Notes under the pieces: generated by a model
What the model saw: only the letters and a program-made list of their open reading frames with translations
Told to the model about the DNA's origin: nothing
The model's database searches: none
Program-made: the position numbers and the translations under genes
Shown here: positions 19,831 to 39,546 of the stretch, one piece after another
Layout of the letters: every line of letters begins with the position of its first letter
How positions within the stretch are numbered: position 1 is the first letter of the stretch
Source: a virus
Taxonomy: Duplodnaviria; Heunggongvirae; Uroviricota; Caudoviricetes
DNA length: 61,488 nucleotides
Virus record (IMG/VR): IMGVR_UViG_2908567220_000003
Reading direction: 5' to 3' (one strand)

Positions 19831-20574
19831 TCACAGAATTAACAGGTCCTCATCAGGATCAAGCGTGGACAGAAAGTCATTCACGCCCCCTCCATTTACC
19901 AGAAAGCGGCTCATGGCTGTAAAAAGCGCAACAGGGCCGTCGATTTTGGCTTCCGGCGTGGATTTATTCGGGAAGATGTTGTCGTTTTTGTCCGGTTTTA
20001 CAGTAACGTTAGACATCATCCAGTTCATGACCGGATGATTGCTGTGATGGAAACGCCCGGCATAAACCAGTGATTCCGTTTCCTTCATGGCCTCTGACAG
20101 ATTGCGGACCGTCTGCGGAACCTCCACCAGCGGTATCCCTTCTTCAGCCAGTGCCAGGCTGAACTGCATTGCGCTCCACGGGTCAAATCCCAGTTCCCTG
20201 AGGTTTTCACCGCCAATCCATTCCAGTAAGTCACTTTTTATCTGAGCATGATCGATAACATCACCATCCGTCAGGATGAGCTTATCCATCTCCGCCCACT
20301 TCCGGTAAAGTTCTGCCTGCTGCCGCGAGCATCGTTCCAGCCGTCCTTCCGGAAGCCAGAATTTAAAATCAGCATGAACATGTCCGTTATCGGTTCGCCA
20401 GAGTTTTGCCGCCGCACAGATATCAATCTTATGAGCAAGGTCGACGCCGACCCACATGGGATATGTTTTCAGCTCATGTTGTGGAGCAATGTATTCGCAC
20501 TTCTCCCACTTAATCATATCCATCCAGGCAGATTCGGCAGTGACCCACACATTCATGTGTTTGGTAAGAATATT
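19831..20574 (-). pseudogene. terL: terminase large subunit, C-terminal (nuclease) fragment of the interrupted prophage terL
   Basis: track ORF 19831..20556 aligns to the C-terminal half of intact TerL 21083..22744 starting at the FNIW motif; frame open to 20574; lacks ATPase domain. Confidence 0.8.
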
Positions 20575-20848
20575 TCAAGTTTTTTAAAATTGACTGTATA
20601 TCAATCGTTTAACATGAAAAAACAGTCTTTATAAATCATCGAGCAATACACAGCGCAATACACGTATCTGTATTGTTTTAATGCTGATACACACCGTTTT
20701 TTGATACAGTGATTCGACCTACCATCGCGAAGCATTTTTTATTTCTTGTGTGTAACAATCTGACGAGGTGAGCACTCAAAGAGATAAGAGGCAGTAGAAA
20801 TTTCGATCCCCCCTGAATGCAATTTTTCGTATATATATACAAAACAGT

Positions 20849-21002
20849 GCGGGTTATGCGGGTTAGCGGGTTATCTTCGCGTGCTAATTATCTTTTACTC
20901 TTTAATATCAATATGTTAAAAAACAACGCATTTAAATACCAGCCAGAATGTAACCCGCAAGACATTCAAAATAACCCGCAAACACCCCTCAAATAACCCG
21001 CA
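20849..21002. repeat. iteron cluster 1: three tandem GCGGGTTAT repeats, AT-rich spacer, three inverted copies
   Basis: direct copies at 20849, 20858, 20866; inverted TAACCCGCA at 20951, 20972, 20994 with about 21-bp phasing. Confidence 0.7.
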
Positions 21003-21082
21003 AAAACATCCCTGAAAGTAGGTGCCGGTAATACTGAAAATTTATTCCATTAAATGAGCATTGTCCTCTCTCATCCATTCCG

Positions 21083-36968: not shown

Positions 36969-37122
36969 ATATCAATACGGTTCTGGCGAGCCGCTTACTA
37001 TTTTTCGTGGAAATTTTCCTTCCTTTTCAAGTAACGATCTGTGTCTCCTGCCAAGAGCGGTTAACCATGCACATTCATCTTCCTTAATCATCCTGTCGAT
37101 TGTTTCATCATTTTCAAGTTCT

Positions 37123-38346
37123 TCACGCGTAACTATTTGAATCATTACTGTCACCACTAATTTGCTTATTCAGATAGTCGTACCACCAGTTCATAGCTTC
37201 TTTTTTTCTGTCCATATACTGGCTTCTGTTATAAACCCCGGCAACACCGCCTAATGTGTGCCCAAGCAACTGTTCAACCACATTATGTTCAAAACCATGA
37301 TCACTTAGTTTTGTGGCAAACACTCTTCGCATATCATGCGCCGTCCATTTCTCCGAGTGTTTCATCCTTTTCCATGTCTTACCGATAGTTACGCTTGCCG
37401 TACACTGACGCATATCAAACCCAATCACATTTTCTTTGTTACCTGTTATTTTTTTTAACGTAACTAACCAGTTAAACATGCCATCAGGAATCGGTCTGAT
37501 TATTTCCCTGCCATTTTTGCTATGATCAGCGGGAACGCGCCATAATTTCTTATCAAAATCCCACTCTACCCAGGACGACAGTAATACTTCTGACAGTCGA
37601 CAACCAAAAACTACCAGGAAACGTAAAATAATTCGGTTTTCATATGATAATTCGTGATTGTCATAATCAGTATTAATACTTCGCCATAAATCTCTGATTT
37701 CATCATCTGTTAAAACCCTGCTTCTTCGCGCAGACTTTTTTCCCACATCACAGACCTCAAGATCATCAATTTCATGACTAATCGCGTATTTTCTTACCCT
37801 ACAAAATTTAAGCGCCTGTTTTGATATACGCAACAAAGCTCCGGCCTGTACAGGTGCTACTTTTTTTATTTTGTCAAAACACTTAATCCACATAGATATA
37901 GAGCAATCACTAAGTGGTACATGACCAATCACCGGATAAATATGTTTACCAAAGCACTGCCTGATATGTTCTGCTCCCCTACGCTTATCCATTGCATAAT
38001 TATCAAGCCAGTATTCAAGTGCCTCACGAACGGTAACAGGTTGCAAGGTGGCTTCCCGTTCAATTTTTATCTGAATCCGTGGATCTCTGCCCTCCGCAAG
38101 CCAAGTTCGACACTGATCGCGCATCTCTCTCGCTGATTTGAGACTCAGATCAGGATATTTTCCAAGTGTCAGCCAGATGGGCGCGGTTTCCCTTCCCGCC
38201 AGTCTGTAAAAGAAAACAAAACTAACACATCCGTATTTACTGACCCGTACCGAAAGCCCGTTACCATCAGCGATGGTTTCCTGCCTCTCACTCCTGCGTC
38301 CAAGCAGGGAACGAAGTTTTTTATCGCTCAGTTTGTTTAGCGCCAT
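37123..38346 (-). CDS. int: tyrosine integrase, P4-type (satellite)
   Basis: ATG at 38346 (MALNKLSDKKLRS) inside track ORF 37123..39546; C-terminal R..H..GH..Y catalytic pattern; adjacent to right junction. Confidence 0.85.
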   Translation of the reverse strand: MALNKLSDKKLRSLLGRRSERQETIADGNGLSVRVSKYGCVSFVFFYRLAGRETAPIWLTLGKYPDLSLKSAREMRDQCRTWLAEGRDPRIQIKIEREATLQPVTVREALEYWLDNYAMDKRRGAEHIRQCFGKHIYPVIGHVPLSDCSISMWIKCFDKIKKVAPVQAGALLRISKQALKFCRVRKYAISHEIDDLEVCDVGKKSARRSRVLTDDEIRDLWRSINTDYDNHELSYENRIILRFLVVFGCRLSEVLLSSWVEWDFDKKLWRVPADHSKNGREIIRPIPDGMFNWLVTLKKITGNKENVIGFDMRQCTASVTIGKTWKRMKHSEKWTAHDMRRVFATKLSDHGFEHNVVEQLLGHTLGGVAGVYNRSQYMDRKKEAMNWWYDYLNKQISGDSNDSNSYA

Positions 38347-38518
38347 GTGATTTATAACCCGTTTTTGCAATACACAGTGCAATACACAAATGATGAAAAC
38401 AGCCAGAACCTTCCAGAAAAAACAAAAACGACGAACAAGAAAAAAATCTTTTTCTTTCATTTGGTTACTAAAAAAATCAGGACAGGTCGCACTGTTGTTA
38501 CGGCGTGATGTTACTTTC

Positions 38519-39546
38519 TTGGTAAAAAAATTCACCCGCGCAGAGACCTGCTCCTTCGCTTTTTTCGCCAGACGACGCAGATCATCCCAGCGTTTACAGA
38601 TGCCCAGGCCAGGATTCGCTTTCTGCCAGACCGTTTCATCAAACGGATCATCTCCCTCATCGAGCGTGTAAATGATCGCAAAGTAGGAGTCGTCTTTTAC
38701 CGCGCCCTCCACGTCGCTGTTATAGCCTCGCAATACCTTAATGGCGTAATCGCGCTGCTCGTAGCAAATCCCTTCCTTGTTAAAGCCAGCCGTGGTGATG
38801 CCAAATAACAGAGACTGCAGACGGGCACCGGTTGCCGTTTCCAGAACGTCCCACACGTCACGGGTTTTATGAGCATGCAGCTCATCAATAATGGCACAGT
38901 GGATGTTCAGACCGTCCAGGTTGTTTGCATCCGAGGAAAGCGGTTCAAATTTTGATGCGCTCTGCTCCTGGTAAATCGCCAGCTTGTTGAAGTCAAACAA
39001 CCGCCCGAGTGTCGACCGGGCTTTTCTGACCATATTTTTGGCGTCTTCAAACACAATTCTGGCCTGGTCACGCGTGGTTGCGGCTGAATACACCTCAGCC
39101 CCGCCTTCACCATCTGCCCCCGTCATATACAGACCGATACCCGATGACAGGGTTGATTTTGCGTTTTTACGGGCAACTTCGTTGTATGCTGTCCGGAACC
39201 GGCGCACCATCACCGGGCGTCCACTGCCATCGCTGCGCATGACAACTTCCCCGGTTTCTTCATTCACCAGCGGAATGACAAAACCAAAAATATTAATGAG
39301 GATAAACACATGCCAGTCCATCAACTCAATGGGCTGACCTGCCAGCGCCCCTTTCACATGGGGTACAAATTTGTAGAAATTAAGGATGTGCTGTGCACGA
39401 GGTTCACTGAAATAAATCCCCCGCTCTTCGCCGTACTTCAGATCATCAAGAAAACGCTGGCAGGCCAGACGGACAAATTCGCCAGCAACAATTTCTCCTG
39501 CAACAACACGTTCGGCGTAGCGGATCCCGTCAGCCACTTTTGCCAT
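38519..39546 (-). pseudogene. terL: terminase large subunit, N-terminal (ATPase) fragment of the interrupted prophage terL
   Basis: first ~345 codons of track ORF 37123..39546 align to N-terminal half of TerL 21083..22744 up to the FFTKK motif; ATG overlaps terS stop. Confidence 0.8.

Follow-up and report, generated by a model that had tools for sequence, protein, structure and literature searches.

The window analyzed here is a stretch of 61,488 nucleotides, filed in IMG/VR as the virus record IMGVR_UViG_2908567220_000003 (Caudoviricetes), and all positions below refer to it. It contains a prophage, hereafter the helper, in which the gene for the large terminase subunit (terL) is split by an insert of 17,958 bp. 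An earlier note, made from the letters of the sequence, had described this insert as an 18-kb element. Its overall length is as described, but the native satellite makes up only 15,246 bp, the rest being a 2,704-bp insertion sequence (IS) of the IS66 family, IS679-like, and its 8-bp target duplication. The helper genes at the insertion are as follows.

38526..39546, minus strand: 5' fragment of helper terL, codons 1 to about 341, from the translation of the open reading frame (ORF); identical to intact terL of many E. coli genomes down to 38519
19831..20560, minus strand: 3' fragment of helper terL; the TerL C-terminus resumes at 20560, and the sequence is identical to intact terL from about 20574 downward
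39546..40625, minus strand: helper TerS (39546..40028) and HNH endonuclease (40176..40625), directly upstream of terL and co-oriented with it (Pfam Terminase_4 and HNH)

When 17,958 bp (20561..38518) were taken out in silico, the two fragments formed a single ORF of 585 amino acids reading ...ARVNFFTKHMNVWV... across the junction, and the rebuilt TerL gave a full-length match to Pfam TerL_ATPase and TerL_nuclease. The two fragments had been proposed to match contiguous halves of the TerL paralog carried by the satellite (21083..22744), and this was indeed found: residues 10-562 of the rebuilt protein aligned with residues 7-528 of the paralog at 31.8% identity, collinear through the junction. 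The description of the fragments as an ATPase and a nuclease part did not hold, as the break, at TerL residue 343, lies at about position 60-63 of the current Pfam TerL_nuclease profile and not at the border between the two domains. The fragment coordinates given earlier were correct in placing terL pieces on both sides, but the 5' fragment continues past the junction and is in frame with the integrase gene, the whole forming an 807-amino-acid ORF (37123..39546). This 5' fragment is labelled a partial 'terminase large subunit' in the annotations of E. coli 042 and NRZ96606.

The empty site also exists in nature. The rebuilt 400-nt junction was 100% identical to annotated intact 'terminase large subunit' genes; of the 5,426 complete E. 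coli genomes searched for an uninterrupted terL, 905 had matches covering the empty site, as did 11 phage records. With the occupied junctions as queries, similarity to intact terL broke off precisely at 38519 at the attL end and near 20574 at the attR end. The sequence on the attR side did not continue the TerL frame, so that no replacement gene end is supplied by the insert, and terL is certainly non-functional while the satellite is integrated. As judged from these sequences, the insertion is precise, site-specific and recurrent, and excision would be predicted to restore the gene exactly.

Integration site and arm motifs

Satellites inserted in this way were described by Tommasini, Mageeney & Williams (NAR Genom Bioinform 2023, PMC10111431; preprint July 2022) as helper-embedded phage-inducible chromosomal islands (HE-PICIs). 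As reported there, 491 HE-PICIs occupy 14 sites in nine prophage late genes, all have integrases of one clade, and none brings a replacement gene end. The authors read this as 'regulated gene integrity' in the service of the satellite. One of the sites, A:Terminase_1:246, is listed with the att identity 'ttaccaa' and the variant 'tcacgaa'; Pfam has since split Terminase_1, and the profile coordinate 246 corresponds to the older profile. The following att features were located in the window.

38519..38525, minus strand: attL core TTACCAA, crossover region, on the integrase side; the same as 'ttaccaa' of group A:Terminase_1:246 (PMC10111431, Supplementary File 1)
20561..20567, minus strand: attR core TTACCAA, by sequence inspection
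38367..38386, minus strand: doubled HE-PICI motif TGTATTGCACTGTGTATTGC of the integrase-proximal attP arm, 136 nt 3' of the core centre
20643..20662, minus strand: doubled HE-PICI motif TGTATTGCGCTGTGTATTGC of the distal attP arm, its 3' end 79 nt 5' of the core centre

The 7-bp direct repeat was thus present at both junctions, where the earlier note had placed it, and falls within the TerL codons Phe-Thr-Lys 341-343. It extends imperfectly to 12 of 14 bases (AATTTTTTTACCAA in attB versus AATATTCTTACCAA), which accounts for the few extra matching bases at the attR side (about 20574). The 7-mer is not significant by itself, with 7 occurrences in the 61-kb window against 7.9 expected; its weight comes from its position, because similarity to intact terL ends there. 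The clade-specific doubled motif TGTATTGCnnTGTGTATTGC, for its part, was matched exactly at only two places in the window, where 0.04 matches would be expected. The two copies are co-oriented in the rebuilt attP, one of them 78-79 nt upstream of the core centre and the other 134-136 nt downstream. The published arrangement is two co-oriented copies of tgTGTATTGCantgTGTATTGCa at 81±2 and 132±2 nt, respectively, from the attP centre (PMC10111431). Measured on the 23-nt motif, the gap through the core centre is 78 + 134 nt, a total of 212 versus the published 213. The predicted junction reads would be GTGAATTTTTTTACCAAACACATGAATGTG for attB in the restored terL and ...GAAATATTCTTACCAAGAAAGTAACATC... 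for attP in the satellite circle.

Both occupied junctions were found in 34-36 complete E. coli genomes. The integrase-side arm was present in exactly 36 genomes, three of which carry two copies, and it abutted a terL fragment, as annotated at the matched position, in 36/36. The isolates came from humans, pigs, cattle, poultry, and water or the environment, and the occupied sites lay at many chromosomal positions. At attL of E. coli 2014C-3075, the core is TCACGAA instead of TTACCAA, a difference confined to synonymous positions of Phe-Thr-Lys (TTT ACC AAA versus TTC ACG AAA), and the core of the satellite thus follows silent alleles of the helper terL. The satellite's own terL reads TCACCAA at the homologous site, one mismatch from the core and with unrelated flanks, and integration into it is unlikely.

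In a scan of species-representative genomes, the attP arm had no match, and the doubled motif (as an 18-base pattern, in 596 Gb) had 51 matches. Those in Enterobacterales were plausible: Xenorhabdus (X. bakwenae NZ_CP119194.1), Erwinia (E. endophytica), Kluyvera, Rahnella, and Arsenophonus. Some genomes of this order had two motif loci, as expected from the two arms of an HE-PICI. The matches in unrelated phyla are probably due to chance.

Gene content of the satellite and the insertion in alpA1

The genes of the satellite, in the order in which they follow the attL junction, and its two iteron clusters are listed below.

37123..38346, minus strand: P4-type tyrosine integrase, 407 amino acids (Pfam Arm-DNA-bind_3 and Phage_integrase)
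36999..37145, minus strand: 5' part of alpA1, codons 1-49 of 73, cut by the IS; the intact protein of E. coli 042 matches Pfam Phage_AlpA
34212..34286, minus strand: 3' part of alpA1, codons 50-73; the frame is rejoined on removal of the IS
33870..34148, minus strand: alpA2, a second AlpA-like gene, 92 amino acids (Pfam Phage_AlpA)
33234..33812, minus strand: Bro-N domain protein, Bro zone (Pfam Bro-N; PHROG anti-repressor families)
32016..32219, minus strand: small Icd-like or repressor-like gene ('Icd-like' in the 042 annotation; PHROG 6196 matches residues 266-356 of the mechanical ORF)
31281..31580, minus strand: DUF4222 gene, replication zone (Pfam)
29164..31284, minus strand: DUF927 primase, replication zone (Pfam; PHROG DNA primase, E 3e-176)
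28528..28953, minus strand: SSB (Pfam)
28228..28524, minus strand: PerC-family regulator (Pfam)
21083..27105, minus strand: late zone as a whole (Pfam, PHROG, 042 annotation)
25936..27105, minus strand: major capsid protein (Pfam/042 annotation)
25321..25881, minus strand: prohead protease (Pfam/042 annotation)
24105..25409, minus strand: portal, mechanical ORF; annotated start at about 25319 (Pfam/042 annotation)
23813..24199, minus strand: head-tail adaptor (PHROG head-tail adaptor Ad1)
23373..23813, minus strand: HNH (Pfam/042 annotation)
22728..23225, minus strand: TerS, P27 family (PHROG terminase small subunit)
21083..22744, minus strand: satellite TerL (Pfam/042 annotation)
29017..29141, no strand: iteron cluster B, a candidate origin immediately 3' of the primase gene, where TGCGGGTTA is repeated six times without mismatch
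20848..21002, no strand: iteron cluster A, 3' of the satellite terL and near attR, where TGCGGGTTA occurs five times exactly and once with a single mismatch

The Pfam domains bear out the P4-type tyrosine integrase that had been noticed beside the right junction. The order of the zones is that of HE-PICIs: Integration (Int and two AlpA genes), Bro, Replication, and Late, the last running from capsid through TerL with a head and packaging set of the HK97 type. The integrase, alpA, primase and late genes are all on the minus strand, in the same direction as HNH-terS-terL of the helper. No tail or lysis genes were found in the element, either in the 042 annotation or in the Pfam and PHROG scans. 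The head and packaging proteins share 25-41% amino acid identity with their helper counterparts, and an identity this low led to the rejection of a recent origin of the satellite's head genes from the helper.

The Icd-like gene corresponds to the 3' end of the mechanical 357-amino-acid ORF at 32016..33089. No C4/isrK-type immunity RNA was found inside the satellite with Rfam at gathering thresholds. The copies in iteron cluster A are arranged three per orientation around an AT-rich spacer, and the 9-mer TGCGGGTTA has only one exact copy in the window outside the two clusters. Between the replication and late zones, an ORF of 168 amino acids (27392..27898) lies on the opposite, plus strand, the usual position of accessory genes. 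It had a full-length match to PHROG 5789 (function not known) and none in Pfam or PADLOC; PADLOC found no defence-system match for four accessory ORFs.

The window contains two identical copies of the IS.

34295..36998, plus strand: IS679-like IS66-family element with tnpA, tnpB and tnpC, 2,704 bp (Pfam HTH_Tnp_1, TnpB_IS66, DDE_Tnp_IS66)
47690..50393, plus strand: second IS679-like copy, 100% identical, in the early/nin region of the helper, with its own 8-bp duplication GAAAGTGC

Elements of the IS66 family have tnpA, tnpB and tnpC (DDE_Tnp_IS66), an 8-bp target duplication, and inverted repeats starting GTAAGCG. The first copy has the ends GTAACCG... and ...CGCTTAC and is flanked by the 8-bp duplication TATTTTTC at 34287..34294 and 36999..37006; the name IS679 is taken from the label 'IS679 family' given by PGAP to copies 98.8% identical. 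This copy is present in neither E. coli 042 nor NRZ96606, and among the 5,426 complete E. coli genomes, a set that does not include NZ_CP024978.1, none had the same IS/alpA junction. The second copy, next to a DUF968 gene, is not present at that place in NRZ96606. Because each copy has its own target duplication, they represent two separate transpositions. They have the same orientation and are 13,395 bp apart; a deletion formed by recombination of one copy with the other would take away int, the 5' fragment of terL, terS, HNH, Q, and the lysis genes.

The first copy splits alpA1, the AlpA gene adjacent to the integrase, after codon 49 of 73, and the end of the Pfam AlpA domain is among the 24 of 73 residues that are lost. 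When the IS and one copy of the duplication were taken out in silico, exactly the 73-amino-acid AlpA protein of 042 was obtained. This protein is 51% identical to the single AlpA of 11capE, a member of the HE-PICIs inserted in a capsid gene, against 41% for alpA2. The IS genes run opposite to those of the satellite and stand between int and everything downstream.

Finally, several RNAs were detected in the helper: an STnc100 small RNA (44120..44309, minus strand), tRNA-Arg(tct) together with a tRNA of anticodon cat (45008..45258, minus strand), a hok/sok-type sok antitoxin RNA (50966..51137, minus strand), and DicF RNA (56903..56954, plus strand). These are typical cargo of Qin/Rac-like lambdoid prophages.

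Mechanism and alternative explanations

The precise junctions, the empty site found in nature, the integrase that is always there, the arm motifs, the satellite's own head and packaging genes, and the lack of tail and lysis genes together assign the insert to a class of satellites. It is thus very likely that a 15.2-kb capsid-forming satellite of the HE-PICI type was integrated by its P4-type tyrosine integrase at TTACCAA in terL of an HK97-like lambdoid E. coli prophage. The site-specific integration of a satellite into the packaging gene of its likely helper, as put forward in the earlier note, is borne out by the integrase, the gene content, the empty site, and the 36/36 association with terL. 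The note had added that the insertion cripples helper packaging while the element keeps its own. The satellite does have its own packaging genes and terL is split, but the published model (PMC10111431) is one of reversible delay rather than of lasting damage.

The steps that may be followed are modelled on PMC10111431 and on the induction data for 11capE, the founding HE-PICI and the only one induced experimentally, which was reported there to excise precisely and late after induction. In the integrated state, the helper would be without TerL. After induction, the composite would excise and replicate first, and helper late transcription would read through HNH-terS and the terL 5' fragment into int and alpA. 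The satellite would then excise late, restoring terL exactly, replicate from its own origin, and fill its own small capsids through its own HNH, TerS and TerL, while tails and lysis functions would be taken from the helper. No minus-strand consensus promoter was found by a scan between the junction and int, and the only terminator hit was a weak one on the minus strand inside the terL 5' fragment; around the two junctions, neither promoter nor terminator hits exceeded what shuffled sequence would give.

Several points weigh against the interpretation given above. Read-through is suggested by co-orientation and by the scarcity of promoter and terminator hits, and such scans are weak evidence. 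In the account of PMC10111431, excision, replication and late timing were measured for 11capE only, and no virions were recovered. The integrase was compared by pairwise identity with catalogued members, and it is this identity that would place it in the HE-PICI clade: its first 400 nt are 100% identical to those of E. coli 042, and it is 50% identical, without gaps, to the integrase of 11capE. The match of the insert to a particular catalogued copy (see below) is probable, as suggested by its exact length, site, and species. As for the loss of excision proposed below for this copy, the argument draws on the general role of AlpA in PICIs, and the intact alpA2 might substitute for alpA1.

The IS in alpA1 raises the question of whether the copy in the window is still mobile. 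A truncated AlpA, an IS opposed to the satellite genes between int and the rest, and a length 18% above the native one make excision unlikely, and we favor, with some reserve, the view that this copy is unable to excise and that the break in terL is effectively permanent. A less probable alternative, which still deserves some weight, is that alpA2 or the integrase alone supports excision of the same element, the IS being a neutral passenger, and that terL is restored on induction. alpA2 is intact, matches Pfam Phage_AlpA, and has 41% identity to the AlpA of 11capE, while the integrase ORF, both att cores, and both arm motifs are also intact. However, the interrupted gene is the integrase-adjacent and better-conserved AlpA homologue and has lost a third of its length, 24 of 73 residues; the 2.7-kb IS separates int from all downstream satellite genes in the opposite orientation; the element, at 17.96 kb against a native 15.2 kb, may exceed the capacity of its own small capsid; and a second IS copy is found in the helper early region.

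A further explanation is that the insertion is mainly a permanent prophage knock-out of benefit to the host, through domestication or defence, and not a reversible timing switch. The certain loss of terL function during integration, the two IS copies in the composite, and the report that many HE-PICI helpers look truncated (PMC10111431) agree with it. It nevertheless appears improbable, as 36 genomes show 98-100% conservation of the integration machinery, arm motifs and att cores, the satellite retains a complete replication and head/packaging module, and the core variants TTACCAA and TCACGAA track synonymous terL alleles, all of which characterizes an element under selection to integrate and excise repeatedly; 11capE, moreover, excised precisely after induction (PMC10111431). 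That there was no satellite insertion at all, two terL homologues 18 kb apart in one orientation being the product of misassembly or of recombination between two prophages, is scarcely credible. Both junctions recur at many positions in 34-36 complete genomes that are independent of one another, one of them E. coli 042, a genome finished by Sanger sequencing. This excludes an assembly artefact, one of the objections raised in the earlier note, as well as a one-off rearrangement. The two TerL proteins are only 32% identical and the DNA differs at the site, so that homologous recombination is without a substrate, and the breakpoints coincide with an exact 7-bp duplication flanked by integrase arm motifs.

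The in-frame passage from terL into the integrase depends on a tract of seven T (T7) at 38428..38434 on the minus strand. In the 36 E. coli copies, 29 alignments spanned 399 nt (apparent T6) and seven spanned 400 nt (apparent T7); these calls were made from the alignment spans and checked in one strain, 2014C-3075, in which the T tract is one base shorter and a stop closes the frame immediately ahead of the int ATG. 11capE likewise has this frame closed, and so do Arsenophonus members, as judged from their attL text. A functional TerL-Int fusion in general was rejected in view of these stops and of the 29/36 copies with T6; the fusion ORF is incidental, as implied by the 'reannotate' notes in PMC10111431. 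One could imagine that T7/T6 toggles the integrase between a free gene and an 807-amino-acid fusion of TerL(1-343), a linker and Int. If so, the T7-state integrase would be made only with translation of helper terL, and excision would be tied to helper late translation. We consider such a toggle very improbable: the fusion is open in only 7/36 E. coli copies and closed in 2014C-3075, Arsenophonus, and 11capE.

In helper-embedded satellites, a parasite of phages takes control of its helper in cis by splitting an essential late gene; it is passively replicated and transcribed with the helper, and the gene is restored only at its departure. The case also bears on prophage annotation, where split terminase genes and integrase/terminase 'fusion' calls are easily mistaken for decay or error, and on satellite counts and gene flow in E. 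coli pathogens such as strain 042. The principle was established in 2022-2023, and what is added here is a copy with an IS in the excision/activator gene. It is plausible that this copy is a natural example of a satellite frozen inside its helper, with a prophage permanently defective in packaging. The two-cluster iteron arrangement and the T6/T7 polymorphism are, together with the IS-inactivated alpA, minor additions.

Comparison with catalogued elements and related systems

The earlier note had left the novelty of this target unverified. The phenomenon had already been published, together with its site, the 7-bp core and the fusion ORF, and the published set apparently includes the very copy found in the window (PMC10111431). 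Supplementary File 1 of that paper lists Eco33.15.A_Terminase_1_246 in E. coli 042 (FN554766.1/2250958-2235714) with the note 'reannotate term_int fusion'. The window and the 042 composite are 98.1-98.6% identical in DNA apart from the IS, and the two copies share species, target gene, site, 'ttaccaa', and a terminase/integrase fusion ORF; the copy in the window has, in addition, the 2,704-bp IS679-like element in alpA1. Also listed is Eco7866.18.A_Terminase_1_246 (CP024978.1/373986-356029), with the helper Eco7866.62.potB, a 62-kb composite against the 61.5 kb of the window. Its span of 17,958 bp is the exact length of the insert, from which it differs in nothing of substance, and the element in the window is probably this catalogued copy. 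In the sections of PMC10111431 considered here, the IS in alpA1 is not discussed; it is only stated that long PICI/prophage BLAST hits included insertion sequences.

11capE (Eco567.11.E_Phage_cap_E_80) shares with the satellite the order of the zones, DUF4222, the primase, and SSB, besides the AlpA and integrase similarities given above. Each of the two elements sits inside a helper late gene, points in its direction, and carries a homologue of it. In contrast, 11capE is 11 kb long and targets the lambda-type capsid gene E, with a 10-bp identity block, instead of terL. It carries only capsid and decoration genes, and since it has neither terS nor terL, it is presumed to use the packaging machinery of its helper. 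The exact string of the doubled motif was not found in 11capE at zero mismatches.

By gene content, as read from the sequence, the satellite is a capsid-forming PICI (cf-PICI), a group whose prototype is EcCIEDL933 (Alqurainy et al. 2023, as cited in PMC10085698). The SatelliteFinder model for cf-PICIs in PMC10085698 accepts 9-11 of 11 components, counting two head-tail joining genes, and describes elements of about 14-15 kb without tail, holin or lysis genes. Shared with them are int, alpA, primase, the satellite's own capsid, protease, portal, adaptor, HNH, TerS and TerL, a size of about 15 kb, and the lack of tail and lysis genes. When the components were compared by Pfam and PHROG, one head-tail joining gene was recognised here instead of the two in the model. 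Classical cf-PICIs use chromosomal att sites away from the helper, whereas this satellite lies inside the helper terL.

A related record, LR881103.1 (Escherichia phage vB_KppS-Ant, 16,548 bp), was deposited as a phage from an induced prophage. Its genes are in the order of the satellite and of cf-PICIs (terS, terL, ..., int, regulators, primase, capsid, protease, portal, connectors, HNH), with about 76% nucleotide identity to the late zone of the satellite; the label of one gene as tape measure protein looks doubtful. The record probably represents a packaged satellite, with linear ends immediately 5' of terS; by homology, this position suggests that such satellites may use a cos site ahead of terS to package their own DNA.

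With P4, the satellite has in common an integrase with Arm-DNA-bind_3 and catalytic domains, a primase-type replication protein, an Icd-like gene, and an AlpA-like regulator. The two separated iteron clusters are reminiscent of the ori and crr of P4. Unlike P4, the satellite would build its own capsid. P4-like satellites have genes for capsid size and helper control (sid, psu, delta) beside the integrase and the alpha primase; no such family was among the Pfam and PHROG matches of the scanned ORFs, which included part of the small ORFs and were searched without dedicated profiles. P4 integrates at a tRNA-Leu gene and not in its helper P2.

The splitting of a gene by an element that brings no replacement end and whose precise excision restores the frame is also shared with active lysogeny, as pointed out in PMC10111431 for skin in sigK of B. 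subtilis and phi10403S in comK of Listeria. In those systems, a host gene is split and the switch serves host development or infection, whereas in HE-PICIs the split gene is that of another mobile element and the satellite would be the one to benefit from the switch.

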